The position numbers were made by a program, and so were the translations under genes. A stretch of 64,000 bases of DNA, taken from NCBI GenBank assembly GCA_037444845.1, contig JBBILQ010000004.1, positions 12,745 to 76,744 on the forward strand, in the 5' to 3' direction. Of this stretch, positions 3,629 to 62,358 are shown piece after piece. The notes under the pieces were generated by a model. It did not search any database and was not told the origin of the DNA. It was given only the letters and a program-made list of their open reading frames with translations. The DNA is from Candidatus Aminicenantes bacterium (GTDB lineage Bacteria; Acidobacteriota; Aminicenantia; Aminicenantales; UBA8522). The first letter of the stretch is position 1. Every line of letters starts with the position of its first letter.

Positions 3629-3970
3629 TCATTCCAACCTAAGTCTTTCCGCTTCGAGGCCAAAATCCTTCACCATAAGTTTGATGGCATGCGCTCTCTT
3701 CTCTGCTTTGAGATTTCCCTCATTGTAGTGGCAATCACCCAGATGACAACCGGGCGTCAGCAGTCCGTTCGACGCATTTCTATTTTGGGATAGCTCCGGC
3801 TTTCTATCCTCCTCATACCTGGCGAACATGACTCCCTTCTGCCTTGCCTTGGTATAATAGCCTTCTCTGAATCCATACGTTCTGATGTCCCGGAACAAAA
3901 CATAAACCTTCGTCCCGGGGAGAAAGCTCTTTTCCCTTCAAGGCGTTCTTCACTGCCTCGGTGCAACAAA
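3629..3970 (-). pseudogene. Decayed hdrA'-'mvhD fusion remnant: partial duplicate of the hdrA/mvhD junction with internal deletion
   Basis: The 89-aa ORF 3629..3898 reads FRDIRTYGFREGYYTKARQKGVMFARYEEDRKPE (matches HdrA 8084..11347 region FRDIRTYGFRESYYSEARRQGVMFARYEEDRKPE) joined to GCHLGDCHYNEGNLKAEKRAHAIKLMVKDFGLEAERLRLE (matches MvhD 7671..8087 GCHPGDCHYKEGNLKAEKRAEAIVLMLEDFGLEADRFKLE). Nucleotide identity is visible, e.g. ctgatgtcccggaacaaaacata shared with 8776..8798. Confidence 0.7.
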
Positions 3971-4028
3971 TGCTGAAGTAATAAATCTTGAATATTCGGT
4001 TGACACGACCGAAATTTCAAGATAATCT

Positions 4029-5349: not shown

Positions 5350-6381
5350 ATGAGGGAAATATTCCGGTTCGGTTCGCCAGCCGACAAAACGAAAAAACTC
5401 AGCAAGAGGACTTCCATAAGAAGCGCAAGTAAAGTGTTTGATACGCGCCCCCGGATCAGTGACTCTTTTGGACTGGATGAACGGATCGTCGTTCATTGCG
5501 GCGACTGCCTGGATTTCCTGAAATCGATTCCGGATCAAACACAACAGTTTATTGTAACATCCCCGCCCTATAATATAGGCAAGGAATACGAAAAACGCCT
5601 TGAGCTCCAGGTATATTTGGATCAACAAGCAAATGTCATTACTGAGTGCGCCCGGGTTTTAAAGCATTCCGGCAGCATCTGCTGGCAGGTTGGAAATTAT
5701 GTTAAGAACGGATCGATAATTCCCCTCGATACTGTCTTATATCCCATCTTTATAGGATTGGGCTTTAAGATGAGAAATCGCATCATTTGGCATTTTGAGC
5801 ACGGCCTTCATTGCTCAAGGCGCTTCTCTGGTCGCTACGAAACGATCATCTGGTTCACTAAGTCGGATGAATACTATTTTAATCTCGACGGGGTCCGCGT
5901 TCCGCAAAAATACCCAGGGAAAAGGCATTTCAAGGGCCCAAAAGCAGGACTGTACTCGGGCAATCCGCTGGGCAAGAATCCCGGCGATCTGTGGATCATT
6001 CCAAACGTCAAGAGTAACCATATCGAGAAGACAATCCACCCCTGCCAGTTTCCCGTTGAACTAATCGAGCGGCTCGTGTTAGCCCTGACTCAAACCGGAG
6101 ATTGGGGCCTGGACCCATTTCTTGGGGTCGGCACTTCGATCATCGCCGCAATCCGGCATGATCGAAGAGGCGCTGGCGCGGAAATCGTTCCCAAGTATGT
6201 TGAGCTTGCCAAAGAGAGAATTGACCAGGAGATCGACGGCACCCTAAAAACGCGGCCCATGAGCCGGCCTGTATATGATCCAGTTGAAGCGGGGAACAGC
6301 CTGACGAAATCCCCATGGGGATCAGAATCTAAGTCTCCTCAACTCTCCCTCATCAAAAGCTTGGTGAACAGGCAGGAATAG
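5350..6381 (+). CDS. Type II DNA methyltransferase, beta-class (N4-cytosine or N6-adenine; SPPY motif IV before FxGxG motif I)
   Basis: TSPPY catalytic motif near the N-terminus, HPCQFP and DPFLGVGTS (AdoMet motif I) near the C-terminus. This order is typical of N4C MTases such as M.BglII, M.PvuII and M.BamHI. Confidence 0.85.
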   Translation: MREIFRFGSPADKTKKLSKRTSIRSASKVFDTRPRISDSFGLDERIVVHCGDCLDFLKSIPDQTQQFIVTSPPYNIGKEYEKRLELQVYLDQQANVITECARVLKHSGSICWQVGNYVKNGSIIPLDTVLYPIFIGLGFKMRNRIIWHFEHGLHCSRRFSGRYETIIWFTKSDEYYFNLDGVRVPQKYPGKRHFKGPKAGLYSGNPLGKNPGDLWIIPNVKSNHIEKTIHPCQFPVELIERLVLALTQTGDWGLDPFLGVGTSIIAAIRHDRRGAGAEIVPKYVELAKERIDQEIDGTLKTRPMSRPVYDPVEAGNSLTKSPWGSESKSPQLSLIKSLVNRQE

Positions 6382-6385
6382 CTGA

Positions 6386-7155
6386 TTGACAATCGCTGAA
6401 ATCTATTCTCATCTTAATGGGCAGGAGTTTCTCTTGGTGCATAAGCGCGCGCTTTGGAAAGAAATCAAAGCGGTCATTAAAGAAGTCGATGCCGTGAAAT
6501 GCAGGACAAAAATCTCGAAGGAAAAAACGAAGAAAGGAAGAACGCTGTACAGCCCGATTGCTCTCAACGCAGATTTTAAAAGACTGCTCAGGGCAAAGAA
6601 TTGGCAAGAGAGCCGGGTTAGTTACTGGGTGACGAAGAGCGAAAAGCTTATTCGAAAGACGTTGACGATGACCGCGGCCGAGCAAAAACGCGAAATCGAA
6701 GAAGCTGGAGAGAAACCTATTTTTAGCTATAATCAGACGGATTTCGTCAAAGACAGAGTCGCGGTAGAAGTCCAATTCGGGAAATACGCGTTTGTTGCTT
6801 ATGATCTATTCGTAAAACACTTGGCTTTCTATGTTGGCGATCAAATAGCCTGATCTATTCACAAAATGATACGATAAAACGCCCCCTCCCCTGGCGGGAG
6901 GGGATAGAGGGGAGGGGGAATCTTTGAATGATCCCCCTCACCCCGACCCTCTCCCACATGGGGAGAGGAGATTTTTTCCTTTCATTTCGTGAATAGTCCA
7001 GGATAGATGTTGGGATTGAAATTCTTCCGATGAAGACTCTACAGAACGAGATGAGTTCGGGCGTTCCTTATTTTGAGGGTGAGTTTTATAACGTCGTTCG
7101 ACAGGGACGGGGAGTCCCCGCTGTGCCTCTGGTGCTAATCGGAGTCGAAGCTTAA
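6386..7155 (+). pseudogene. BglII-family type II restriction endonuclease gene interrupted by a MITE-A insertion (N-terminal part 6386..6848, C-terminal part 7007..7155)
   Basis: N-terminal ORF ends ...RVAVEVQFGKYAFVAYDLFVKHLAFYVGDQIA*. It contains the BglII-like ALWKEI segment and the catalytic EVQF block (BglII TLVEVQF). The stop codon lies in the MITE terminal repeat. Removing 6849..7006 (element plus one ATAG copy) restores an in-frame 203-aa reading frame: ...DQID VGIEILPMK...VPAVPLVLIGVEA*. Confidence 0.75.
6849..7002 (-). mobile_element. MITE-A copy 1 (154 bp), flanked by 4-bp ATAG duplications; sits inside the REase gene
   Basis: Near-identical to 20977..21116 and 59289..59442. Terminal inverted repeats cctgRYctattcacRaaat; direct repeats atag at 6845..6848 and 7003..7006. 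Confidence 0.85.
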
Positions 7156-7670: not shown

Positions 7671-8087
7671 TTAGGTTTTATACGGGCTCGGCCCTAACTT
7701 TTTAACCTTCTCGGTAAACTCCCTCACCACCTGGGCGAACCTCGGCCCCTCAGACGCCGAAACCCATTCCAACTTAAACCTGTCCGCTTCCAGGCCAAAA
7801 TCTTCCAGCATCAAAACGATTGCCTCGGCTCTCTTCTCCGCCTTGAGGTTTCCCTCCTTGTAGTGGCAGTCGCCGGGATGGCAACCGCACATCAGCACCC
7901 CATCCGCTCCCTTGGTCAGGGCATCAATCACTAAATTGGGATGGACCATCCCTGAGCACATCACTCTGATGATCCTTATATTGGGAGGATACTGCAACCT
8001 TGACACCCCGGCCAGGTCCGCTCCCGCATAGGAACACCAGTTGCAGCAAAAACTCACGATTAAGGGCTCAAACGCCTCACTCATCAT
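7671..8087 (-). CDS. mvhD: MvhD-like subunit (methyl-viologen-reducing hydrogenase delta / FlxD-like)
   Basis: FCCNWCSYAGADLAG...RVMCSGMV...CGCHPGDCHYKEGN, the MvhD signature. Confidence 0.9.
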   Translation of the reverse strand: MMSEAFEPLIVSFCCNWCSYAGADLAGVSRLQYPPNIRIIRVMCSGMVHPNLVIDALTKGADGVLMCGCHPGDCHYKEGNLKAEKRAEAIVLMLEDFGLEADRFKLEWVSASEGPRFAQVVREFTEKVKKLGPSPYKT

Positions 8088-11000
8088 CCTACTCCTAAGG
8101 CCGCGTTGGCCTGCGCGGCTAACTGTTCAAGGGTAAAGCCTTTGACGAATATTCCCTTCTTGGGACAGGTGGCCATGCAGCACCCGCAGCCCTTGCAGGC
8201 CGTCTCATCCACCTCGACCGTCTTTTTCACCGAACCATTTCTCATGTATTCGATTAATGTAATTGCCTGATAAGGACATGGTTCAATGCAGTAGGCGCAG
8301 CCGTCGCAGTTCTCATCCACCACCTGAGAAATGTTCGCCTCCAGCTCCACACTGTCCTTGGAGAGCACCGTCGATGCCCGGGAGGCTGTCGCCTGGGCCT
8401 GGATGATGCTCTCGTCGATGGCTTTGGCCGAATGAGCCAGGCCGCATAAAAAGACTCCCTCGGTGGCAAAATCAACAGGCCGCAACTTCATGTGGGCTTC
8501 CAGGAAAAACTTCTCCTTGGTTAAGGGGACTTTCAAGAATTTGGCAATCTCCTCGTTCCCCTGATCTGCCACAATTCCGGCCGACAACACGACCAAGTCC
8601 GCGGTAAGCTCCAGGGGCATCTTTAACGTCTGGTCAAAAACCACGACACTCAACCCATTCCCGTTCTGGGACACCTCCGGCTTTCTATCCTCTTCATACC
8701 TGGCGAACATGACTCCCTGCCGCCTGGCTTCGGAATAGTAGCTTTCCCTGAACCCGTACGTCCTGATGTCCCGGAACAAAACATACACATTCGTCTTAGA
8801 AGAAAGCTCTTTTATTTTTAGAGCGTTCTTGACGGCTTCGGTGCAGCAAATCCGGGAGCAGTAGGGCCTTTCCACATCCCGGGAGCCAACGCATTGAATC
8901 ATCACGATGTTCCTGGGAATTCCGTTATTCCTGCCCTTTGACCAAATTCCACCCTCGCCGAGGCGCTGCTCCAGCTCAAGCTGAGTTATGACTCTGTCAT
9001 TCTGTCCGTACAGATACTCCTTGGGTTTATATTGCTGAGCTCCGGTGGCAACGATCACGACGCCGTGTTCAAATTCTTCTGATTTTCCGTTCGTGCTAAT
9101 CGTTGTCTTGAAATTCCCGATTGTCCCTTCAATCTTTTCGATCTTAGCATCTGTGTAAAGAAAGATTTTTCCCGAGTCTTCGACCTGTTCGATAAGGCTT
9201 TTTAACCTGCTCTGCGGGTTTTCTCCGCTTATTAAGTAGTTGATATGCCGGAGATTTCCGCCCAGCTCCTTCTCCTTCTCAACCAGATGGACATAAAACC
9301 CCTGGTTAGCCAGTTCGATTGCCGAAGTCATGCCCGAAAGCCCGCCGCCGATGACGAGGGCAGCTTTAACGATGGGCACGGCTCTTTTCTGGAGAGGGCT
9401 CAATAATCGCGCCTTGGCCACAGCCATTCTGACCAAGTCCCTGGATTTCTCCGTTGCCTTTTCCGGCTCCGCCATATGCACCCAGGAGCACTGGTCCCTG
9501 ATATTGGCCATCTCGAAAAGATAGGGGTTCAGCCCAGCTTCCCTGGCCGTATTCCTGAACAGAGGCTCGTGAGTTCGCGGCGTGCAGGAGGCCACGACGA
9601 CGCGGTTGAGGCTGTGCTCCTTGATTTTTTCCTTTATTCTCTCTTGAGTGTCGTTCGAACAGGTGTAGAGGTTATTTTCTGCGTAAACGACACCGGGAAG
9701 CGTCCTGGCATACTCGACTACATCCAGGACACGGACCACCCCGGCGATATTTGTCCCGCAGTGACAGACGAAGACTCCGATTCGCGGCGCCTGCCCGCTG
9801 ACATCAGTCTCCGGGGGGTATTCCTTGGGAATAATAAGGCTTCCTTTAACGTCTCTTAAGAGCGACAGGACTTTGGACGAGGCGCCCGAGGCCTGCATGA
9901 CCGTCTCCGGTATATCCTTTGGCTCAGTAAAAGGACCGGCGACATACACTCCTTCGCGTTTTGATTCAACCGGAGCAAAAGGAGACGTCTTGCAGAAATG
10001 GAATTCATTGAGCTCGACCCCGAATATTTCAGAAATTTCTTTGGCCGATTTTGGGGGGAGCATGCCGACGGATAAAACAACAAGGTCATACTCACGCGAA
10101 GCCTTCCTGTCGTCCTCCGTTAGATAGTCGACGATCAGGTTTTTTGTTTGAGGGACCTCTTTAATGGTGGGCGGACGACACCTTACATAATTTACTCCAT
10201 GCTCCTTAGCCCTTTGATAATACTCATCAAACCCCTTGCTGAAGGCGCGCATGTCCATGATGTAGACATCACAGTCCAGATCTCCGCTGATATGCTCCTT
10301 GGCAATGATGGCTTCCTTGGTCGCGTACATGCAGCAGACAGAGGAGCAATAATCCCGCTCCGAATCACGCGAGCCCACGCACTGGATAAAGGCTATCCTT
10401 CTGGGTTCGGTCTTGTCATAAGGCCTTAAGACTTTTCCAGAATAGGGGCCCGAAGCAGAGAGGATTCTTTCAAACTCGAGCGAGGTGACGACATTAGGGG
10501 AAGCCCCGTATCCCAAACCCTCTTTGATCTTGGCGTCGAACAGGTCGTATCCCGGCGACAGGATGACCGCGCCGACATCCAATTCCATTTTCTTCTCGGT
10601 CTGGTCATAGTCAATCGCCCCGGCTTCGCAAAACTCCTTGCAGACCCCGCATTCATCCTTGAGCACATGGACACAGTATCGTTCGTCGATCGCTGCTTTA
10701 TGAGGAACGGCCTGGGGATAGGCAATGTAGGCCGCAGCCCGATCGAGCAATCCCTTGTCAAATTCATTCAAGATGGGGATTTCTTTATTCTTGCTGATTT
10801 TCTCAAGCCTAATCCTTTCGGTCGGACAAATAAAGGCACAGGCTCCGCAGGTCTGGCAGACATCGGAATTGGCATCAAACGGCGGGCCGACCTTCCGCTG
10901 AGGTCCGCGATGGACAAACCCGATGGCCGCGACACCCATTCGTTCGCAGCACATTCTTGTGCACAAGCCGCAAAGGAAACAATCATCGTTCCTCTTTGTA

Positions 11001-11347
11001 AAGCGTGTTTCTCTAACCCCATGTTCTTCGGCAACACTCTGGATGACTTTTGAATCAGGGCATCTCGCCAGGAGCAGTTCGATCATGATCTTCCGCGATT
11101 TTTTCACCCTTTCGGAATCCGTCTTCACCTCCAAACGATGGCTCGCCGGATAGGTGCATGAAGTCTGAATCGTCGTCCTCCCCCTTTGAATAACCTCGAC
11201 CAGGCATAATCTGCAAGCTCCGTAAGGAGTTAGGGCTTTATGATAACAGAGAGTCGGGACCTTTATGCCCACACTCTGAAGACATTCTAAGACTGTCTTC
11301 CCTTCATCGAATTCGTACTGTCTGCCGTTTATCGTCAGCTCAATCAC
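8084..11347 (-). CDS. hdrA: HdrA-like FAD/FeS oxidoreductase with an N-terminal NuoG-like 2Fe-2S/4Fe-4S domain and tandem HdrA modules (1087 aa)
   Basis: N-terminus MIELTINGRQYEF...CYHKALTPYGACRLCLVEV (2Fe-2S ferredoxin domain); FAD-binding GGGLSGMTSAIELA; HdrA Cys-rich CHCGTNIAG and CSWVH motifs; C-terminal CxxCxxCxxxCP ferredoxin. Confidence 0.85.
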   Translation of the reverse strand: MIELTINGRQYEFDEGKTVLECLQSVGIKVPTLCYHKALTPYGACRLCLVEVIQRGRTTIQTSCTYPASHRLEVKTDSERVKKSRKIMIELLLARCPDSKVIQSVAEEHGVRETRFTKRNDDCFLCGLCTRMCCERMGVAAIGFVHRGPQRKVGPPFDANSDVCQTCGACAFICPTERIRLEKISKNKEIPILNEFDKGLLDRAAAYIAYPQAVPHKAAIDERYCVHVLKDECGVCKEFCEAGAIDYDQTEKKMELDVGAVILSPGYDLFDAKIKEGLGYGASPNVVTSLEFERILSASGPYSGKVLRPYDKTEPRRIAFIQCVGSRDSERDYCSSVCCMYATKEAIIAKEHISGDLDCDVYIMDMRAFSKGFDEYYQRAKEHGVNYVRCRPPTIKEVPQTKNLIVDYLTEDDRKASREYDLVVLSVGMLPPKSAKEISEIFGVELNEFHFCKTSPFAPVESKREGVYVAGPFTEPKDIPETVMQASGASSKVLSLLRDVKGSLIIPKEYPPETDVSGQAPRIGVFVCHCGTNIAGVVRVLDVVEYARTLPGVVYAENNLYTCSNDTQERIKEKIKEHSLNRVVVASCTPRTHEPLFRNTAREAGLNPYLFEMANIRDQCSWVHMAEPEKATEKSRDLVRMAVAKARLLSPLQKRAVPIVKAALVIGGGLSGMTSAIELANQGFYVHLVEKEKELGGNLRHINYLISGENPQSRLKSLIEQVEDSGKIFLYTDAKIEKIEGTIGNFKTTISTNGKSEEFEHGVVIVATGAQQYKPKEYLYGQNDRVITQLELEQRLGEGGIWSKGRNNGIPRNIVMIQCVGSRDVERPYCSRICCTEAVKNALKIKELSSKTNVYVLFRDIRTYGFRESYYSEARRQGVMFARYEEDRKPEVSQNGNGLSVVVFDQTLKMPLELTADLVVLSAGIVADQGNEEIAKFLKVPLTKEKFFLEAHMKLRPVDFATEGVFLCGLAHSAKAIDESIIQAQATASRASTVLSKDSVELEANISQVVDENCDGCAYCIEPCPYQAITLIEYMRNGSVKKTVEVDETACKGCGCCMATCPKKGIFVKGFTLEQLAAQANAALGVG

Positions 11348-14926: not shown

Positions 14927-15817
14927 TTACTGGGCGTGCGCATATGTTCCCAGCAACTCGGGCACTTTTGTCTTGGACATAAGACCATGAATATCTTCTC
15001 CCACCTTCAGGACTGGAGCCAGGCCGCAGCATCCGATACAACGCACGGTCTCAAGCGTAAAAAGCATGTCCTTTGTCGTCTCCCCGTTTCTTATCCCCAG
15101 CTCACTTTCAAGGGCCCCGACAACTTTGCCGGCGCCCTTGACATGACAGGCCGTCCCGAGGCAGACCGTGATGATATGCTTGCCCCTCGGCTCCAGGCTG
15201 AAAGCGTTATAAAAGGTGGCGATTCTACAGACCACACTCAAAGGCATGTTGAGCTGATCAGCCACGTATCTCAACACGGGCTCGGGCAGATAGTTATACG
15301 TATCATTGGCTTTCTGCAGGATGGCGACCAGCGGCCCTTCTATATCTTTATATTCTTTGATGATTCTGTTCATGATTTCCATATCTTTAACGGAAATATC
15401 AATTTTGTCTTTTTCCGGTGTCACATAAATGATATGGTGAACCGGGCAATTCTCCGTGCAGATACCGCATCCCGTGCACTTCTCCTCGTCCACAAACCTC
15501 GGTCTCTTCCGGATTTTTACTTTAAAATGGCCAGCTGTTCCTTCGATGCTCTCGATGTCGGCAAGGGAAATCACTTCAATGTCCTTGTGTCTGCCCACTT
15601 CAACCAGCCTCGGCGCCATCGTGCACATGGCGCAATCGTTCGTCGGGAAAGTCTTGTCGAGTTGAGCCATGACGCCGCCGATGGATGGTTGGCTATCGAC
15701 CAGATAAACCTTAATGCCTGATTCAGCCAGGTCAAGGGCTGCCTGCATACCGCCAATTCCGCCGCCAACAACCAGGGCGGCACCAATTTTTTTATTTTCC
15801 TCTGCGTTCATTGACAT
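14927..15817 (-). CDS. Fusion of an HdrA N-terminal FAD-binding/ferredoxin segment with a NuoE-like 2Fe-2S domain
   Basis: ALVVGGGIGGMQAALDLAESG...DKTFPTNDCAMCTMAPRLVEV (HdrA N-terminus), CTGCGICTENCP, then NuoE-like CLGTACHVKG...CIGCCGLAP. Confidence 0.7.
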   Translation of the reverse strand: MSMNAEENKKIGAALVVGGGIGGMQAALDLAESGIKVYLVDSQPSIGGVMAQLDKTFPTNDCAMCTMAPRLVEVGRHKDIEVISLADIESIEGTAGHFKVKIRKRPRFVDEEKCTGCGICTENCPVHHIIYVTPEKDKIDISVKDMEIMNRIIKEYKDIEGPLVAILQKANDTYNYLPEPVLRYVADQLNMPLSVVCRIATFYNAFSLEPRGKHIITVCLGTACHVKGAGKVVGALESELGIRNGETTKDMLFTLETVRCIGCCGLAPVLKVGEDIHGLMSKTKVPELLGTYAHAQ

Positions 15818-15898: not shown

Positions 15899-16750
15899 TC
15901 AGAGAAGGCCTTTTGATTTCAATAGATCACACGGATCAATAATGTGCCTTCTTAGCCATTGATCTACTTCCTCCGAGCCCAAGGCCAATCCTAGTAGCTC
16001 TGTAAAATAAAAGATGGGGAAGTGAACCTCCCGACCTACATTTTTCGAGACCGCCAGCTGTTTCGTGTCCAGATTGGCTTGGCAGAGGGGGCATGCCGTG
16101 GCCACACAATCCGCTCCTGCATCTTCCGCCATTTGGATGAGTTTTCCTGAAAGCTGGGCCACAATATCAGGTCGGGAAAGCATCAGGCTTCCACCACAAC
16201 AGTCTGTTTTATAGGACCAGGGATAAACCTCCACGCCCAAAAGGGATAAAAGCTCATCCATAGCTTGGGGATTTTCGTAGTTTTTCGCATCCGTCACCTT
16301 GGGAGGCCTGGTTATGAGACACCCATAGTAACAAACAGCCTTGAGACCCTTCAAAGGTTTTTTTATTTTCTCTTTGATGCCTTTAAGATTTTCTTTTTCA
16401 AAGAGAAAATCGAGGAGATGTTTAATGGGAACTTTTCCCCGATAGGAAGTCTCTATAACAGGTTTCTTTCCTTCTCGGACGTGTTTTTCTGCAACCTTGA
16501 ACCTTTGAAAGCAAGCGGCGCAAGGAATCACCAGGTCCAAGCCAACATCCTCCGCCGTAACAAGGTTGCGTGTCGCAAGCTCAATGGCTAAGACCTCATC
16601 GGTACAATGGGCAGAACTCGCACCACAGCAGTTCCAGTCTGTAAGTTCATTTAGCTCGATACCCAGAATCTTGCAGACCTCCAGCGTGGATTTTCCATAC
16701 TCAAGTCCAGTGCTACGCAGGGAACAGCCGGGGTAATACGAAACTTTCAC
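15899..16750 (-). CDS. hdrB: HdrB-like subunit with two CCG domains
   Basis: YYPGCSL...NCCGA and YYGCLITRP...CCGG...CPLCQ, the CCG-domain signatures. Confidence 0.9.
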   Translation of the reverse strand: MKVSYYPGCSLRSTGLEYGKSTLEVCKILGIELNELTDWNCCGASSAHCTDEVLAIELATRNLVTAEDVGLDLVIPCAACFQRFKVAEKHVREGKKPVIETSYRGKVPIKHLLDFLFEKENLKGIKEKIKKPLKGLKAVCYYGCLITRPPKVTDAKNYENPQAMDELLSLLGVEVYPWSYKTDCCGGSLMLSRPDIVAQLSGKLIQMAEDAGADCVATACPLCQANLDTKQLAVSKNVGREVHFPIFYFTELLGLALGSEEVDQWLRRHIIDPCDLLKSKGLL

Positions 16751-20910: not shown

Positions 20911-21165
20911 AATAGGCGGATGTTTCTCCTGTCAAGGCGAGCACCCATTGCGTGCGTGGCATCCCATGATAACTAACCTGGACTATTCACGAAATGAAAG
21001 GAAAAAATCCCCTCTCCCCATGTGGGAGAGGGTCGGGGTGAGGGGGATCATTCAAAGATTCCCCCTCCCCCCAGGGGAGGGGCCTGCTTTCTGGCATAAT
21101 TTGTGAATAGGTCAGGCTAACTGAGATCACTTCGTTTCGCTCGCGATGACAAAGTCCTAACGGCA
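20911..21165. repeat. Repeat-C palindromic element (REP-like) split by a nested MITE-A insertion
   Basis: Left half gtcaaggcgagcacccattgcgtgcgtggcatcccatgataa, right half ctgagatcacttcgtttcgctcgcgatgac. Together they align to the uninterrupted copy at 38620..38696. Confidence 0.7.
20977..21116 (+). mobile_element. MITE-A copy 2 (140 bp; 14-bp internal deletion relative to the other copies) with CTAA target duplication
   Basis: ctaa at 20973..20976 and 21117..21120; inserted within repeat C. Confidence 0.85.
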
Positions 21166-30744: not shown

Positions 30745-30866
30745 TGGGCGCAGGGGGCTGCTCTAAAGCCCCCGTAGCGGAGGGGGGACCCGTCGGCTTC
30801 TCCGACGGGGGGAACCGACGGGACTGGTTCCCCGGGGCGCGGGGGCCAAGAGCAGCCTCCTGCGCC
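30745..30866 (+). ncRNA. Repeat B copy 1: about 122-nt structured element (outer 19-bp stem enclosing three hairpins), candidate small RNA preceded by TATAAT
   Basis: Second copy at 52253..52376 shows compensatory changes in the stems. G-U pairs are possible only on the plus strand. TATAAT lies at 30739..30744, immediately upstream. Confidence 0.5.
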
Positions 30867-30961
30867 CTATCCAATGATATAAGTAGAAATGCTTAGCGGA
30901 GTAAAATCCGGGCTGAAATGAATCGCGATTTGCGCTAAAATAGAGCTCCAGGAGAAAAGCC

Positions 30962-33562: not shown

Positions 33563-36500
33563 CCCCCCAGGAGGCCTTCGATCTCCGCAAAAATCTGCTC
33601 ATCACGGAAATGATTCTGCTGGGAAGCGGCCGCGGGACAGGCGGCGACACACGTCCCGCAGCCCTTGCAGAGCGCCTCGTTCACCTTGGAGATGCCTTCG
33701 TCCTCAGAGAACTTGATGGCCGTGTAGGGACAGAGGTCGTTGCAGAGGCGGCAGCCGGAGCAGAGCTCCGGGTCGATATAAGCCTGGATGGGCTCGATTT
33801 CAATCTCTCCCTTAGAAATATAGGCCAGAATGCGCGCGGCCGCCGAGCTCGCCTGGGCCACGCTGTCTGGAATGTCCTTCGGCCCTTGACAGCATCCCGC
33901 GATGTATATTCCATCTGTGGCCGTGGCCGTTGGGTCGAGCTTGGGATGCTTCTCCAGGAAGAAACCATCAGGGCTTCGGCTGATGGAAAAGAGCCGCTGG
34001 ATGTCGCCCGCGTCGGGTTGAGGCTCGATGGCGTTGCAGAGCACGACCATGTCAACGGGGATTTCCCGGTACTTTTTGATCAGCGTATCTTCGCAGCGGA
34101 TGAGGAGAGTCCCTTCTTCTTTTTTGGACCAGCCAGATTGAACCACCTCGGCCACTTTGCCCCGAATGACATTCACCCCCTCTTCTAAGATCCGGGAATA
34201 GAACTCTTCATACCCCTTGCCAAAGGCTCTCATATCAATGTAGAACTCGTAGACTTCAGCGTCTGTCCTGTCTTTGATGAGATGGGCAAACTTGAGCGCA
34301 TACATGCAACAGACACGGGAGCAGTAGGGGTGATACTTTTCATCCCGGGATCCGACGCAATGGATGATCCCGATGGCCCTCGGCTCCTGGCCATTTTTCA
34401 AGACAATCCTTCCCTGGGTTGAGCCTGTGGAACTCACGATCCTCTCAAATTCAAGGCTTGTGTAGACGTTATCGAATTGGCCGTAGCCGTAAAGGCTGAG
34501 GGCCTTGGAATTTAACGTTGCGTAGCCTGTGGCCAGGAGGATCTGCCCGACCTTAATCTCCTTGATCTCATCCTTCATGCGATGGTCAATGGCTTTCGGC
34601 TCGCAAACGCGCACGCACTCTTGGCATTCAACACAGATGCCGCAATTCAGGCAGCGTTCCGCTTCTTTCATCGCCTCTTCCTCGGTTAAGCCCAACTCCA
34701 CTTCTTCAAAGGTTTTGAGCCTTTTCTCCAGGCTAATTTCACTCATCTTCGTCCGGGGCACCCTGGGAGTTTCCTTGAAGGCTGGAGCATACCGATGAGG
34801 ACGGAAGCTCTCATCCCTTTTCGCCAGCTTCTTCGCCCGGGGAGTTGTGAAATCCGCGAGAGGCTCGTTGTTGAGGTATTTATCGATGGCTTCAGCGGCG
34901 CGCTTCCCGTCGCTCATGGCAGCGATCACGGTGGCCGGCCCGAGGACAACATCTCCTCCGGCAAAAACTCCTCTGATGTTGGTCTCCAGCGTCTCCGGGT
35001 TGACCTCGAGGGTGCTCCATTTGGTCACGTTGAGGGGAAATTTACCGGTTAAAAAGTCAACAACAGGCTCCTGGCTGACGGCAATGAGCAATGTGTCAAA
35101 GGCGAGATCATGCTGGCTTCCCTCAACTGGCACCGGCCGGCGCCGGCCGCTCGAATCAGGCTCTCCCAGTTCCATGCGGATGCATCGCACGCCGCAAATT
35201 TTTCCTTCTTTTCCTAAAACTTCGACCGGAGCCACGAGATATTGAATGGCGACTCCTTCTTCTTCAGCCGCAAGAATTTCCGCTTCCTCGGCCGGCATCT
35301 CCTTCCTGGTTCGCCGATACAAGACGGTCACCTCCCTGGCTCCGCAGCGGAGAGCGGTCCTGGCGGCGTCTACGGCCGTATTTCCCCCTCCCACAACAGC
35401 CACTCTCTTTCCCACAGGCTGAGGCCTTCCGAGGTTGATATCCCGCAAGAAATCGACGCCGTGCAAGACGCCTTCCAGGTTTTCTCCCGGAATGGCCATT
35501 TTTAGGCTTTTGTGGGCTCCTGTGGCAATATAAATCGCCTTGAATCCCTGGCTAAAAAGATCGTCGATGACGAAGTCTTTTCCCAGAGCCATGTTTGTCT
35601 TTATCGTCACCCCCATCCGTTTGATAAAGTCAATCTCCATATTGAGGATTTCCCGGGGCAAACGGTATTCAGGAATGCCCAAAATCAGCATGCCTCCCGC
35701 CACCTCGTGCTTTTCAAAGATGACGGGTGAATAGCCTCTCAAGGCGAGCTCATGGCCGCAAGCAAGGCCGGACGGCCCTGATCCGATAATGGCAATCTTC
35801 TCTTTCTTTTTCTTCTCCGCCTTGGGAACTTCGACAAGCGCCTTATTTTTGAGCTCCCAGTCCATGACAAACCGCTTGATGTTTTTTATGGCTAAAGGCT
35901 CATCGGCAAACCGGCGGCTGCATTCCGACTCGCAGGGATGGTAGCAGACGCGGCCGCAGACGAAGGGCAAAGGATTGTCCCGGCGAATGAGGCGGGCCGC
36001 TTCGGCAAACCTCCCTTTGGCAACAAGGGCGATGTATCCGGCGGCCTCCTGGCCGATGGGACAGGTCTCGCGGCAGGGGGGGCGTTCTTCCTTATCGATA
36101 AGGTAGGTGTTGGGAACAGCCTGGGGAAAGGTCCTGTAGATGGCGCTCCTTGCAACCTGATTCTCTTCAAATGAGTTGGGAACAAGGATTGGACAGGCTT
36201 TAACACATTCCCCGCAGGCGGTGCATTTTTCGCTGACATAGCGGGCCTTTTTCTTCACCTTGACGGTGAAATCGCCGATGAAGCCCTGGACATCCTCGAT
36301 TTCGCTCAGGCTGAGGAGCTCGATGTCCTCGTGCTGGGCGACGGAGACCATCTTTGGAGTGAGGATGCAGGCGGCGCAATCCAGGGTGGGGAAGGTTTTA
36401 TCGAACTTGGCCATCTTGCCGCCGATCGTCGAATCCCGCTCGACAAGATACACTTTGTTTCCGGAATCGGCGATCTCCAGAGCAGCCTGAATCCCTGCGA

Positions 36501-52252: not shown

Positions 52253-52376
52253 GGGTGCAAGGGGCTGCTCTGAAGCCCCCGTAGCGGAGGGGGGACCCAT
52301 CGGATTCTCCGATGGGGGGAACCGACGGGACTGGTTCCCCCGGGGCGCGGGGGCCAAGGGCAGCCTCTTGCGCCCA
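52253..52376 (+). ncRNA. Repeat B copy 2 (structured element, candidate small RNA) preceded by TATTAT
   Basis: About 90% identical to 30745..30866, with compensatory substitutions in two stems. Confidence 0.5.
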
Positions 52377-57889: not shown

Positions 57890-59035
57890 TTAGAGACTCC
57901 TCTGAAAATACTTCCCGGGGACTTGATGGACGAGTCCCTTGAGCTCGAGGCCGAGAAGGATGGCTAAGATTTCGGACACTGAGGCGGTCGTCGCCTCGGC
58001 CAGCTCATCTATATGAGTGACCTCGTCCGTCTTGAGGTGATCAACAATCATCTTCTCCTCAGTGCTCAGTTCCGGCATTTTCTCTTTTTCCTCCTCCTTG
58101 CGAGCGAGAAACTTCTCCCGCAGGGGCAACGAGAATTCTTCTACCACATCTTCCCATGTTTCCACAAGCTTGGCGCCCGATTTGATGAGCCAGTGGCAGC
58201 CTCGACTGAGGCCGGAGGTGACGTTTCCGGGCACGGCCATCACTTCGCGATCCTGCTCCAGGGCCAGCCGTGCCGTGATGAGCGAACCGCTCCGGCCGGT
58301 CGCCTCGACAACCACGACGGCCAGAGAAAGGCCGCTGATGATACGGTTCCGGAGGGGGAAGTGAAAAGCGAAAGGTGGCATCGCCGGAGGAAACTCGGAG
58401 ACGACGGCCCCGCGGTCGACAATCTTACGAAACAGGGGTTTATTTTCCCGGGGATAGATATTGTCGAGCCCAGATCCCAAGACCGCGACGGTCCTCCCCT
58501 CTGCAAGCGCTCCCCAGTGGGCGATCGAATCGATCCCCAAGGCCATCCCGCTCACCACGACAAGGCCGCGAGCCGCCAAATCCTTAGCGAGCCTCTCGGC
58601 AACAGCCCGGCCGTACGGAGTCGGCCGGCGGGCGCCGACGACGGCGACAGACGGTTCTTTCAGGACTTCCGGGTTTCCCGCGCCGTAAAGAAGGTAAGGC
58701 GGGTCGAAGATTTCCCGCAAGGTTTCAGGGTAGTCCGGACTATCCGGGGTGATCAAGAAATAGCCCTTTTTGGAGACCCAGTCGAGAACCCGGCCGGCCT
58801 GGTCAAAAATGGCTGGAGAAGTGAGCGCTCTGGCTTTTTCTTCTTCCAGCCCGAGGACCGTGAGATGCGAGGGAGAGGCGTGGAAAATGTCCTCGAGGCT
58901 GGCAAAATGGTTGATAATTTTCTGGGCCGGACCGAGGCTGTCGGAAAGGACGAGGTTCAAGCCCACTCGAAAAAGGAGGCTTTCAGCATCGCCCCTGAAT
59001 AATTTTCCCTGGGAGTGTCCTTTCCCTCGTCGCAT
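57890..59035 (-). CDS. dprA: DNA processing protein DprA/Smf
   Basis: Rossmann-like core VVSGMALGIDSIAH...VLGSGLDNIYP. Confidence 0.85.
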   Translation of the reverse strand: MRRGKGHSQGKLFRGDAESLLFRVGLNLVLSDSLGPAQKIINHFASLEDIFHASPSHLTVLGLEEEKARALTSPAIFDQAGRVLDWVSKKGYFLITPDSPDYPETLREIFDPPYLLYGAGNPEVLKEPSVAVVGARRPTPYGRAVAERLAKDLAARGLVVVSGMALGIDSIAHWGALAEGRTVAVLGSGLDNIYPRENKPLFRKIVDRGAVVSEFPPAMPPFAFHFPLRNRIISGLSLAVVVVEATGRSGSLITARLALEQDREVMAVPGNVTSGLSRGCHWLIKSGAKLVETWEDVVEEFSLPLREKFLARKEEEKEKMPELSTEEKMIVDHLKTDEVTHIDELAEATTASVSEILAILLGLELKGLVHQVPGKYFQRSL

Positions 59036-59288: not shown

Positions 59289-59442
59289 CCTGGACTATTC
59301 ACGAAATGAAAGGAAAAAATCCCCTCTCCCCATGTGGGAGAGGGTCGGGGTGAGGGGGATCATTCAAAGATTCCCCCTCCCCTCTATCCCCTCCCCCCAG
59401 GGGAGGGGCCTGCTTTCTGGCATAATTCGTGAATAGGTCAGG
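59289..59442 (+). mobile_element. MITE-A copy 3 (154 bp) flanked by TTAA / TTAG
   Basis: Identical architecture to copies 1 and 2; intergenic between dprA and the nucleotidyltransferase gene. Confidence 0.85.
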
Positions 59443-59714
59443 TTAGATAAGTTTTAAGCATTCATCCCTGCTGGCATCGATAAGGAGTATAAACCGGCAG
59501 CTCGGAAAGCGTCAAGTTGCCGGAGAAGGAATTGGTTCTTGGTTGTACCAGATCTATATAAAACGTCATAAATAGTCGGGCGCAATTTTAGGCGTTATCA
59601 CTCCTGCCTTTATGGATAGATCACGTTGGTGAAGAAGTAAACTGGCGCCTTCGAAGGCAGTTCCTTATTCGAAAATGATAGCAACACAGGGTCCTGCCGA
59701 ATTTTCGCCTTGCT

Positions 59715-60341
59715 TTGGGCTTGTCCCAATGGGTGAGAACTGTTATTATTTACGGCGTCATGAAGGCCGAAGAAATAAAAAAAATTCTTCAGCGAGCAGA
59801 GTCACCGCTGAAAAAACAGCTTCTCCTTGTCGCATTGATCAGCCGCACGCTCGAGGATCGGGGCAAGGACACGCCAGTCGTCATCGGCGGTTGCGCTCTT
59901 TCATACTATACGCGGGAGGTATATTTTACGGCTGACATAGACCTTGCTTATGCCGACAGGAAAGCTCTGAATGCAGTGCTCAGGGAGTTCGGGTTTTCGA
60001 AGAGAGGTAGGTACTGGGTCAGCCATGATCTGGATATGGCCGTCGAGGCTCCTGTCTCAACACTGGCCGGAGAAGATTCTCCCATCGAGGTTGTCGAGTT
60101 CGACGAAGGCTGGCGGTGCAAGATACTCGGACTCGAGGATTTGATCATCGATCGCATGAACGCCTGCAAACACTGGAAATCGGAAATCGATTGCGAGATG
60201 GTCGAACTTCTACTGAGAAAGTATGGAAAGGAGGTTGATTGGAGCTATTTGAAGACGAAAGCCGCTCTGCCGGAAAATGACCTTCTCCCGGAACTGACAA
60301 CGCTAAGAACAAAAACACGCCGAAGCAAGAGAAAGAGATGA
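59715..60341 (+). CDS. Predicted nucleotidyltransferase (Pol-beta superfamily minimal NTase fold)
   Basis: VVIGGCAL...TADIDLA (G[GS]-x(n)-DxD NTase motif). The true start may be MKAEEIKK at 59760. Confidence 0.45.
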   Translation: MGLSQWVRTVIIYGVMKAEEIKKILQRAESPLKKQLLLVALISRTLEDRGKDTPVVIGGCALSYYTREVYFTADIDLAYADRKALNAVLREFGFSKRGRYWVSHDLDMAVEAPVSTLAGEDSPIEVVEFDEGWRCKILGLEDLIIDRMNACKHWKSEIDCEMVELLLRKYGKEVDWSYLKTKAALPENDLLPELTTLRTKTRRSKRKR

Positions 60342-60655: not shown

Positions 60656-61966
60656 TTATTTCCCAAGGAGAATCGAGCTGCCGGTGAAGAATGTGCCGGC
60701 CACAGCGCCGGTCATCAAGCCGACCAGGGTGGCAGCAAGAAGGGCCCTGAAGCCCAAGCGCGACAGGTCCTTGGTGCGGGTAGGGGCCAGAGCGCCGATC
60801 CCGCCGACAAAGATGGCCAGCGAAGCGACGTGGGCGAAGCCGCATAGAGCATAGGAGGCAATGAGGCCCGAGCGCGGGTGAACTAGCGTGCCTTGGGCCA
60901 GCAACCGGGCTAGGTCCTTGTAAGAGGCAACTTCGGTGGCCACGACCCTCTCGCCGATGATCCTGGCGATAGAAAGAGCATCGGCCGGCGGAATGCCGAT
61001 GACGAGGGCAAACGGGTAAAAAATGTAGCCCAACAGCGCTCTGAACGACCATTCCTGGGTCCAGCCGAACCAGCTATTCAGGTAGCCGCCAAACCAGCCC
61101 AGGGCGAGGTCTAACAGGGCCAGGATTCCCAGGAAAGCCAGGAGCAGGGTGATGATTCCGCCCAGCAGCCTCAACCCGTTCCAGGCGCCGTTGATGATCG
61201 CCAGGATGAGATTGTCTTCTTTTTCGTAATGGGGCTTGATATCCAGCCCCAGAGTCTTCGGCGTCTCCGTCTCGGGCATCAACAACTTGGAGATGACCAA
61301 CGTCGCCGGTGCGGCCAGGAAAGAGGCAGAGACGAGGTGGCCGGCGATGGTCGGAATTTCATTATGGAGTAAAAAAACATAGACGGCCAGCACGGTCGAA
61401 GCGATGGTGGACATCCCGGCCGTGAGGATGGTCGTGAGCTCGGAGCGCGTCATTTCCGCGAGATACGGCCTGATGACAAGCGAGGATTCGACGCCGACAA
61501 AAATTTCGCTCGAGACGCACAGAGCTTCTGCGCCGCTGACCCTCATCAACTTGGTGAAAACCCGGGCGAAGAGCCGGACGAAAAAAGGCATAATACCCAG
61601 GAAGTAGAGGGCGCCGACGAGGCCGGCGAAAAAGATGACCGTGGACAGGCCCTGGAAGGCTAAGATGCTGCCCAGGGAAGCCTCGCCGGCCTCGCCCGTC
61701 GTCCCTGGAGGAATGGCCAGCACGCCAAAGACGAAACGTGTCCCGGCCGAGGCGCTGTCTAACACGGTGACGACGATCCGGTTTACGAAAAGGAAAGCTT
61801 TGGTACCGACGGGAAGGACAAAAATGAAAAAAGCGAACAGGAATTGAAGCCCGATTCCCCAGAAAACGACGCGCCAGTTGACAATCCTCCTTTTAGCCGA
61901 GAGAAGCCAGGCGAAAGCGGCCAGGATGAAGATGCCGGCAAAACTCACCGCGTTATAAGCGTCCAT
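60656..61966 (-). CDS. nupC: Concentrative nucleoside transporter (NupC/CNT family)
   Basis: Multi-TM; CNT-family N-terminal region and C-terminal GFAH...GGIGALAP region. Confidence 0.8.
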   Translation of the reverse strand: MDAYNAVSFAGIFILAAFAWLLSAKRRIVNWRVVFWGIGLQFLFAFFIFVLPVGTKAFLFVNRIVVTVLDSASAGTRFVFGVLAIPPGTTGEAGEASLGSILAFQGLSTVIFFAGLVGALYFLGIMPFFVRLFARVFTKLMRVSGAEALCVSSEIFVGVESSLVIRPYLAEMTRSELTTILTAGMSTIASTVLAVYVFLLHNEIPTIAGHLVSASFLAAPATLVISKLLMPETETPKTLGLDIKPHYEKEDNLILAIINGAWNGLRLLGGIITLLLAFLGILALLDLALGWFGGYLNSWFGWTQEWSFRALLGYIFYPFALVIGIPPADALSIARIIGERVVATEVASYKDLARLLAQGTLVHPRSGLIASYALCGFAHVASLAIFVGGIGALAPTRTKDLSRLGFRALLAATLVGLMTGAVAGTFFTGSSILLGK

Positions 61967-62203
61967 GTGACCTTCCTTCCCGCCGATATCTTAAGTGGCA
62001 TGAGAACGGGTCCTGTCCCGGCGCGAGCTTCTCGACCCCAGCGTGGCGCGCGCCCGGCCGGACCCGGACGGTCAGCAATGTTTTCTCCTTCTTCCCGCCC
62101 GCTTCTTTTCTCTCCATGGTGGATTCCCGGCGGCGACGCCAATATCGCAATTTACTATAAATGGAGCAATTTCTATCGCGATGTCATTTTACACAAATTC
62201 GCA

Positions 62204-62243
62204 GATAGAATCACCCGGCGGGTCCTGTCGCGGTTCACCCCCG
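62204..62243. promoter_or_regulatory. Conserved 40-nt motif D, copy 2, in the long 5' leader of nupC
   Basis: gatagaatcacccggcgggtcctgtcgcggttcacccccg; 37/40 identical to 2718..2757. A third GGGTCCTGTC occurrence lies at about 62008. Confidence 0.4.
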
Positions 62244-62358
62244 AACCACGCCACCCATCGGGTGTAATCCCTGTCATGCTCATTTAGTGGCAAAGCAAAC
62301 GCTTTTGTTGGTGAAAATTCCCAAAAGGCAATTTCGGGGTGCTTTCCGGTGTTTTTTG

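Follow-up and report, generated by a model that had tools for sequence, protein, structure and literature searches.

The 154-bp element termed MITE-A is very probably a non-autonomous DNA transposon (MITE) that is moved in trans by a DDE transposase of the IS1380 family. It is present as dispersed copies, three of them in the 64-kb stretch of DNA analyzed here (hereafter, the window) and another two in 20.5 kb of a MAG contig, L108. A first-pass annotation of the window had already called the family a MITE, and this designation was borne out by the following features: (i) terminal inverted repeats (TIRs), (ii) 4-bp target duplications, (iii) near-identical copies, (iv) two insertions that split genes, and (v) ends of the IS1380 type.

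Alignment of the copies within the window supported the earlier description of copies 1 and 3 as 154 bp long (6849–7002 and 59289–59442), and of copy 2 as lacking a 14-bp stretch, leaving 140 bp (Table 1). The alignment placed the gap in copy 2 at TCTATCCCCTCCCC, which is equivalent to the cctctatcccctcc given in the first-pass annotation. Since the missing segment is located between the direct repeats CCCCTCCCC(TCTAT)CCCCTCCCC, both descriptions refer to one deletion, and this position points to slippage as its origin. The TIRs, also claimed previously, are 17 nt in length (CCTGGACTATTCACGAA) and show 0–3 mismatches across all copies. When up to one mismatch was allowed, the TIR core CTATTCACGAA was found six times in the 64-kb window against 0.83 expected, a count reached in none of 100 shuffles. 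The TIRs enclose a noncoding, G+C-rich interior of 120 bp; within the 140–154 bp of MITE-A the longest through-frame is 49 codons, and no copy encodes a known domain. Two subfamilies were discerned, A1 comprising copy 1 and both L108 copies (99.4–100% identity), and A2 comprising copies 2 and 3 (99.3% identity, plus the 14-bp indel). A1 and A2 are ~90% identical to each other, with the differences clustering in ~20 nt beside the right end. A profile search revealed no further MITE-A fragments in the 64-kb window. Copy 2 is situated between two co-directional genes, encoding a NiFe-hydrogenase large subunit and a histidine kinase, and copy 3 in the divergent intergenic region between dprA (57890–59035, minus) and a DUF6036-like ORF (59715–60341, plus).

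Table 1. Positions of the MITE-A copies, of the features of copy 3 and of the disrupted restriction-modification genes. Positions are those of the window unless L108 is given.
Feature	Position	Strand	Remarks
MITE-A copy 1	6849..7002	-	154 bp, subfamily A1, inside restriction endonuclease gene
MITE-A copy 2	20977..21116	+	140 bp, subfamily A2, with 14-bp deletion
MITE-A copy 3	59289..59442	+	154 bp, subfamily A2
Copy 3 left flank TTAA	59285..59288	.	half of target-site duplication, imperfect vs TTAG
Copy 3 left TIR	59289..59305	+	CCTGGACTATTCACGAA
Terminator-like site, stronger	59312..59344	-	9-bp GC stem; CCCTCTCCCACATGGGGAGAGGG, then GATTTTTTCC
TM_ECO/BoxC/PIT intrastrand-triplex pattern, exact	59322..59356	+	CCCTCTCCC-CATGT-GGGAGAGGG-TCG-GGGTGAGGG
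Second triplex-type block, inverted	59373..59408	-	CCCCTCCCC-TGG-GGGGAGGGG-ATAGA-GGGGAGGGGG
14-bp segment missing from copy 2	59383..59396	+	one unit of direct repeat CCCCTCCCC(TCTAT)CCCCTCCCC
Terminator-like site, weaker	59388..59418	+	9-bp stem, then CCTGCTTTCT
Copy 3 right TIR	59426..59442	-	minus strand = CCTGACCTATTCACGAA
Copy 3 right flank TTAG	59443..59446	.	other half of imperfect duplication
N4/N6 DNA methyltransferase, partner of disrupted endonuclease	5350..6381	+	intact
BstYI/BglII-type restriction endonuclease, 5' part	6386..6848	+	interrupted by copy 1
Same endonuclease gene, 3' part	7007..7155	+	in frame again after 158-bp removal
MITE-A copy in L108	L108 10473-10626		flanks CTGA/CTGG; splits ORF
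MITE-A copy in L108	L108 16423-16576		flanks CTAG/CTAG; between parB and rho

Each of the five copies in the window and L108 has 4-bp flanks, three of which are perfect duplications while the other two agree at three of four bases. Copy 1 lies between ATAG at 6845–6848 and ATAG at 7003–7006 (CTAT/CTAT in the orientation of the element), and copy 2 between CTAA at 20973–20976 and CTAA at 21117–21120. In both imperfect duplications (TTAA/TTAG and CTGA/CTGG) the mismatch is at the fourth base.

The insertion of copy 1 could be reconstructed precisely. This copy contributes a premature stop codon (6851–6853) to the 5' part of the endonuclease gene. Removal of copy 1 together with one ATAG (158 bp) joins 6386–6848 to 7007–7155 and restores a protein of 203 aa, which spans the Pfam domain Endonuc-BglII in full (1–163/163, E 5.6e-35). 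Residues 1–201 of the restored protein align with BstYI (PDB 1SDO, 203 aa) with an E-value of 3.3e-89, and the junction, with FYVGDQI to its left and DVGIEILPMK to its right, is matched without a gap by FYVSDKIDVGVEILPMK of BstYI. From this gap-free alignment the length of the insertion is known exactly, and the endonuclease of the restriction-modification (R-M) pair is seen to have been inactivated. The stretch 5350–7155 as a whole is a BstYI-type R-M pair in which the methyltransferase is intact and the endonuclease is split by copy 1; the methyltransferase (5350–6381) is thus probably an orphan methylase following the disruption of its partner.

When a six-frame pseudo-protein of MITE-A was compared to 5.8 billion proteins, a single match was obtained, P0001, the C-terminal 22 residues of which are encoded by MITE-A. 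The contig of P0001 (NCBI GCA_964548295.1, CAZJPZ010000001.1; locus L108, 20.5 kb) contains the two additional copies listed in Table 1. Removing 10473–10626 along with 4 bp merged two ORFs, of 178 aa and 302 aa, into a single one of 461 aa, and two of the five copies in the window and L108 therefore sit inside genes. The protein encoded at L108 10001–11544, which MITE-A has split into P0001 (178 aa, with the MITE-encoded tail) and the 302-aa ORF, is secreted-looking and has the HExxH-like motifs HESWH and HEGLAEY; the restored 461-aa ORF had no Pfam match. The tetranucleotide signature of L108 correlates with that of the window at r 0.963, and the two halves of the window correlate with each other at 0.969. 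Because of this matching signature, L108 putatively belongs to the same genome as the window or to a very close one.

The first-pass annotation had made its proposal dependent on additional copies elsewhere in the genome, and it withstood this attempt at refutation, as copies do lie beyond the window. Apart from the two in L108, MITE-A or its relatives were detected in L078, L066 and L104. L104, a JGI metagenome contig (flank CTAG), was the one locus returned by a specific TIR scan of metagenome contigs, and both L104 and the public short-read contig L103 end inside MITE-A, as is expected for a multi-copy repeat. The specific TIR scan of viral contigs and a BLAST search against phages gave no match. 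The diverged relatives in L078 and L066 come from two MAGs of similar composition. The L078 element is ~77–80% identical over its full length to the copies of the window and L108 (best local blastn hit, 85% over 124 nt). The L066 element is from Candidatus Desulfaltia (Desulfobacterales); it occupies 2590–2950 with ATAA/ATAA flanks and a degenerate left end, and the loop of its first hairpin holds a nested insertion of ~200 bp, which is a different palindromic element with ends GAGACTGTGTC... and ...GACACAGTCTC. The 99.3–100% identity within subfamilies, together with the two contigs that end inside the element, argues that MITE-A has recently been active.

The relationship to the IS1380 family, which the first-pass annotation had not noted, was apparent from a Rokubacteria MAG (L027), in which a 1695-bp element (5458–7152) with ends CCTGACCTATTCACGAA and CCTGACTTATTCACGAA lies between CTAG duplications. 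Its sole long ORF encodes a 429-aa transposase with a PF13701 domain (Transposase DDE domain group 1; E 1e-102), and this protein is 35–40% identical to annotated IS1380-family transposases on plasmids. The termini of MITE-A match the ends of the L027 element at 17/17 and 16/17 positions, and the right TIR of copy 3 is the one that equals an L027 end at 17/17; beyond these 17-nt ends, the L027 element has no clear similarity to MITE-A. The ends of two plasmid-borne IS1380-family elements are similarly preceded by CTAG, followed by CCCGTCCTATTCACGA in Mesorhizobium and by CCCGGATATTTCAC in Acidovorax, and the target duplications in L027, L106 and L107 are all CTAG, 4 bp in length. MITE-A resembles the IS1380 family (IS1380, ISEcp1, ISPme1) in its CC-initial termini and 4-bp palindromic CTAG target, and differs from it in having no transposase gene and in its length of 154 bp vs. 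about 1.6–2 kb. IS1380-family elements duplicate 4–5 bp of target (ISfinder), and the combination of CC-initial ends and a 4-bp palindromic target parallels the TTAA of piggyBac. IS1380 transposases form the prokaryotic outgroup to the TTAA-targeting piggyBac (PMC10813416), and IS1247 is listed with a 5-bp duplication (PMC3281130).

The same type of end proved to be widespread. A degenerate TIR pattern scan of public genome contigs yielded at least 102 matches, most of which are due to chance. Among the 102 matches listed, YTAR precedes 26 (~1.6 expected by simple arithmetic) and CTAG precedes 13 (~0.4 expected); a second, inverted TIR within 4 kb was found at a minimum of 14 of the listed loci, L078 included (~0.5 expected, again by simple arithmetic). 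The TIR pairs at the other loci, at least 13 in number, bound elements of 95–193 bp, most of them with interiors unrelated to that of MITE-A; the host groups comprise Acidobacteria, Verrucomicrobia, Woeseiaceae, Zetaproteobacteria, Aminicenantes, Bacteroidales and a Thermoplasmatota archaeon. The IS1380-type end CCTGGACTATTCAYRAA is common to several distinct MITE families, 95–193 bp in length and with CTAG, TTAA or TTAG duplications (L007, L040 and L025; L065 and L083; L002; L004; L072; and others); members of these families were seen in Woeseiaceae, Mariprofundaceae, Aminicenantes, Acidobacteria, Verrucomicrobia and the Thermoplasmatota archaeon, and in L083 copies are adjacent to each other. 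Judging from its ends, MITE-A is one of many families that make up a wide range of IS1380-type MITEs. Among the matches listed, a full-length IS with exact MITE-A ends was present just once, in the unrelated MAG L027.

A tblastn search with the L027 transposase as the query found no IS1380-type transposase gene in the window, L108, L103, L104 or the other loci examined. We infer that MITE-A is moved by an IS1380-type transposase of this organism, present or former. Such an enzyme would bind the 17-nt TIRs (CCTGGACTATTCACGAA) and target YTAR-like tetranucleotides, CTAG being optimal, for insertion with duplication of 4 bp; a partner element or its remnant in the host would be expected to end in CCTGRNCTATTCACRAA. 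In the literature searched, we found no link between a MITE and IS1380 ends, no mention of the TIR core in a transposon context, and no paper on IS1380 with CTAG targets.

The interior of MITE-A was proposed in the first-pass annotation to fold into three hairpins enclosed by the TIRs. The predicted minimum-free-energy (MFE) folds of copy 3 consist of the TIR stem and precisely those three hairpins, at −45.8 kcal/mol (z −6.6) for DNA and −91.6 kcal/mol (z −7.3) for RNA; none of 200 shuffles was as stable in either case. Hence the fold prediction suggested at the time came out in favor of structure, MITE-A folding far better than shuffled sequence (z about −7). The particular arrangement is less firmly established, as the opposite strand and the alignment consensus favor one long imperfect hairpin instead, and no compensatory pair was found for any fold (0 of 52 pairs; covariation among few divergent copies). 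For these reasons the three-hairpin fold is not unique, and in the predictions it is one of several near-equivalent folds of the C-rich and G-rich blocks. The MFE fold of copy 2 is without the third hairpin, which is abolished by the 14-bp deletion. At gathering thresholds, Rfam gave no match in the window, and at a relaxed threshold only generic hairpin models were returned, scoring 15–27 bits vs. thresholds of 35–105.

The C-rich and G-rich blocks have a known counterpart, which likewise had gone unnoticed in the first-pass annotation. In copy 3, the exact intrastrand-triplex pattern in Table 1 includes hairpin 1 and a canonical G-quadruplex motif at 59336–59358, and hairpin 3 falls within the second, inverted block, along with a G-quadruplex motif of the minus strand. 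In both triplex-type motifs the C-block and the G-block form a stem (hairpins 1 and 3), and hairpin 2 joins the third block of one motif to that of the other. The TM_ECO pattern, CCCTCNCCC-N3-6-GGGNGAGGG-N3-GGGNGAGGG (Holder et al., 2015; PMC4666352), is matched exactly by copies 2 and 3 (21010–21044 and 59322–59356) and by both L108 copies (10506–10540 and 16456–16490), copy 1 is one base short of it, and it was seen in none of 100 shuffles. The right-hand motif of MITE-A is an inverted variant composed of CCCCTCCCC/GGGGAGGGG blocks and falls outside the TM_ECO pattern. One local effect is that nearly all canonical G-quadruplex motifs of the 64-kb window are MITE-borne (five of six in a regex search).

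In a BLAST search of MITE-A against plasmid and chromid records, the matches in E. coli and Azospirillum were confined to the interior. Its E. coli counterpart is the BoxC pair at hrpB-mrcB (78% identity over 87 nt), a site between the two genes that reads CCCTCTCCCTGTGGGAGAGGGCCGGGGTGAGGGC, followed by a spacer and the inverted partner. From E. coli TM no. 20 (CCCTCTCCCTGTGGGAGAGGGTCGGGGTGAGGGC) the MITE-A motif deviates at only three places, which fall in the first loop and on the final base. BoxC, PIT elements and TM_ECO are names for one motif, described as an intrastrand triplex by Holder et al. (2015; PMC4666352), who counted 3610 occurrences over 262 proteobacterial genomes, and the same motif behaved as a G-quadruplex-hairpin-duplex switch in vitro (Kaplan et al., 2016; PMC5100583). 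The interior of MITE-A is an inverted BoxC/PIT/TM_ECO pair, in which each outer hairpin would be made of a C-block and a G-block, and the third G-blocks would pair centrally; hairpin or cruciform, intrastrand-triplex or G-quadruplex forms would be open to the element on either strand. The inverted arrangement is like that of five sites in E. coli MG1655. The setting is different, since the MITE-A pair lies within IS1380-type inverted repeats and target duplications, and lands in genes. The E. coli motif has been described as invariably intergenic, and Holder et al. found it in association with no transposon, transposase (or transposase remnant) or integrase, and only speculated on horizontal transfer (PMC4666352); by contrast, two of the five MITE-A copies are in genes and all have transposon ends.

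Whether BoxC in general could be linked to such elements was considered at the E. coli and Azospirillum BoxC sites, none of which has inverted ends like those of MITE-A. The BoxC pair of the hrpB-mrcB spacer (L109 1490–1590, compared with L111) is absent from ~35% of complete E. coli genomes. Between alleles with and without the pair, ~117 nt are exchanged for ~15 nt, with neither a target duplication nor inverted ends; this is a replacement rather than a clean insertion, and it lends no support to a general link between BoxC and MITEs. Taken together, the lack of such ends in E. coli BoxC and the replacement at hrpB-mrcB indicate that the motif is not generally carried by a MITE of the MITE-A type. 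It seems unlikely that IS1380-type MITEs such as MITE-A serve, or once served, as vehicles that spread BoxC-type motifs; if they did, the BoxC units seen singly or in pairs in E. coli and Azospirillum would be remnants whose ends were lost.

A role as a transcription terminator or mobile promoter had also been put forward. The terminator half of this suggestion is in keeping with the finding that both strands of every copy carry a GC hairpin with a T-run behind it, such sites being ~3–6 times commoner per region than in shuffles; in the A1 copies, L078 and L066, the other side ends in a T-run as well. Against it, the core motif was inactive in E. coli, according to the work cited in PMC4666352, which is quoted there for PIT elements as having neither promoter nor terminator activity. 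As for the promoter half, no sigma-70-like promoter was found inside any MITE-A copy, and MITE-A differs in this respect from ISEcp1 and ISPme1, for which outward promoters are known (PMC9330008). Based on its sequence features, the interior could conceivably act as a terminator, though we are inclined to doubt it; it may be a bidirectional transcription stop or may otherwise aid the element. The positions of the copies do not indicate a selected role, as copy 3 lies between divergent genes, copy 2 between co-directional genes, and two copies are in genes.

These data bear on three other explanations for MITE-A. If MITE-A were derived from an element of the IS5 family (IS5 group) and moved by its transposase, the 4-bp duplications and YTAR-like targets would fit, as the IS5 group duplicates 4 bp at CTAG/YTAR targets (ISfinder). 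The ends speak for a different origin: they match an element in which a PF13701 transposase is the only long ORF and resemble annotated IS1380-family ends, and the IS5 ends (GGAAGGTGCGAA...) are not known to be related to them. We regard an IS5 origin as extremely improbable. There is hardly any likelihood that MITE-A is a REP/BIME-like palindrome dispersed through a RAYT (IS200/IS605-like) enzyme, recombination or gene conversion. Its GC-rich palindromes, its mostly intergenic positions and the original listing of BoxC among the palindromic repeats of E. coli (PMC4666352) would fit. Terminal inverted repeats like those of a DDE-type IS, and target duplications, are not known from REPs, and MITE-A has both. 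REP/BIME, as 20–40-bp palindromic units with neither transposon-type ends nor duplications, was rejected as the identity of the element for the same reason.

The strong predicted structure raises another alternative, that of a host-encoded element (a bidirectional terminator, a small RNA or a BoxC-type switch) that is multi-copy owing to its function and not to transposition. Such an element would account for the hairpin and T-run on both strands of every copy, and it would agree with the widespread occurrence of the BoxC/TM motif and its G-quadruplex/hairpin switching in vitro (PMC5100583, PMC4666352). It sits poorly with the destruction of genes by two of the five copies, with target duplications and transposon-type ends, and with the location of copy 3 between divergent genes, where a terminator would be without a target; moreover, Rfam gave only sub-threshold matches to generic hairpins, and there were no compensatory changes. 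A purely host-encoded element is hence very unlikely, while function and mobility of MITE-A are not mutually exclusive. Our preferred reading remains that of a MITE mobilized by an IS1380-family transposase.

MITEs of comparable design have been described. Chunjie, Nezha and the Correia elements of Neisseria belong to the same size class as MITE-A and, like it, end in inverted repeats, duplicate their targets, fold very stably, are present in multiple copies and occasionally insert into genes (PMC3184786, PMC10969869). Chunjie of Geobacter uraniireducens was rejected as a match, having 21-bp TIRs, 9-bp duplications and an A+T-rich composition vs. 17 nt, 4 bp and G+C-rich in MITE-A (PMC3184786), and so was Nezha of cyanobacteria, on its end and duplication features; the ends of Nezha are shared with ISNpu3. 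The kind of element is known, and the IS1380 assignment, the end-sharing family that crosses phyla and, above all, the triplex/G-quadruplex cargo are new.

Other repeats were noted in the window. Repeat B, ~122 bp long, represents another MITE-like family, the two copies of which (~30746–30867 and ~52253–52375) are ~90% identical; a GC-rich hairpin (z −5.8 for the DNA fold) makes up the interior, and the inverted ends are GGGCGCAGGGGGCTGCTCT and AGAGCAGCCTCCTGCGCCC. The first-pass annotation had attributed the same architecture to repeat B and MITE-A. This applies to the layout of TIRs plus internal hairpins, which the two share, and not to the ends, those of repeat B (GGGCGCAGGGGGCTGCTCT) being unrelated to those of MITE-A. 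A 62-nt direct repeat at 2712–2773 and 62198–62259 (84% identical, 59.5 kb apart; core TTCGCmGATAGAATCACCCGGCGGGTCCyGTCGmGGTTCACCCCCG) lies upstream of two minus-strand genes, for a PAS histidine kinase (1116–2660) and a nucleoside transporter (60656–61966). It had no Rfam match, and no tRNA was found in the window; the repeat may represent regulatory sequence common to both genes, or else a third family of repeats. Direct repeats of 62–84% identity in coding sequence (3769–3986 vs. 8650–8866; 8162–8325, 15443–15495 and 33634–33686), partly within or near an HdrA-like ORF (8084–11347), resemble paralogous segments of genes more than they do mobile repeats, and are possibly iron-sulfur cluster-binding regions.

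The present work ties a MITE to the IS1380 family. It further reveals one IS1380-type end with a CTAG/YTAR 4-bp target that is common to many unrelated short elements across bacterial phyla and in at least one archaeon, and such end-sharing is unrecorded in the MITE reviews and papers that we found. A triplex/G-quadruplex motif that has been studied since the 1990s, including for genomic instability, is here located inside a mobile element and has demonstrably moved, into a restriction endonuclease gene and a second ORF, and its spread thereby becomes testable. We treat MITE-A as primarily selfish DNA with a slippage-prone interior. The loss of 14 bp from copy 2 illustrates this tendency, and agrees with the instability that was linked to the motif by Holder et al. 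In practical terms, short-read assemblies break at the element, and an R-M pair has lost its endonuclease to it with the methylase left intact. If, as seems unlikely, MITEs such as MITE-A do spread BoxC-type motifs, their insertions might also excise precisely, given that IS1380 transposases are bacterial relatives of piggyBac, and gene disruptions such as that of the BstYI-type endonuclease would then be reversible.
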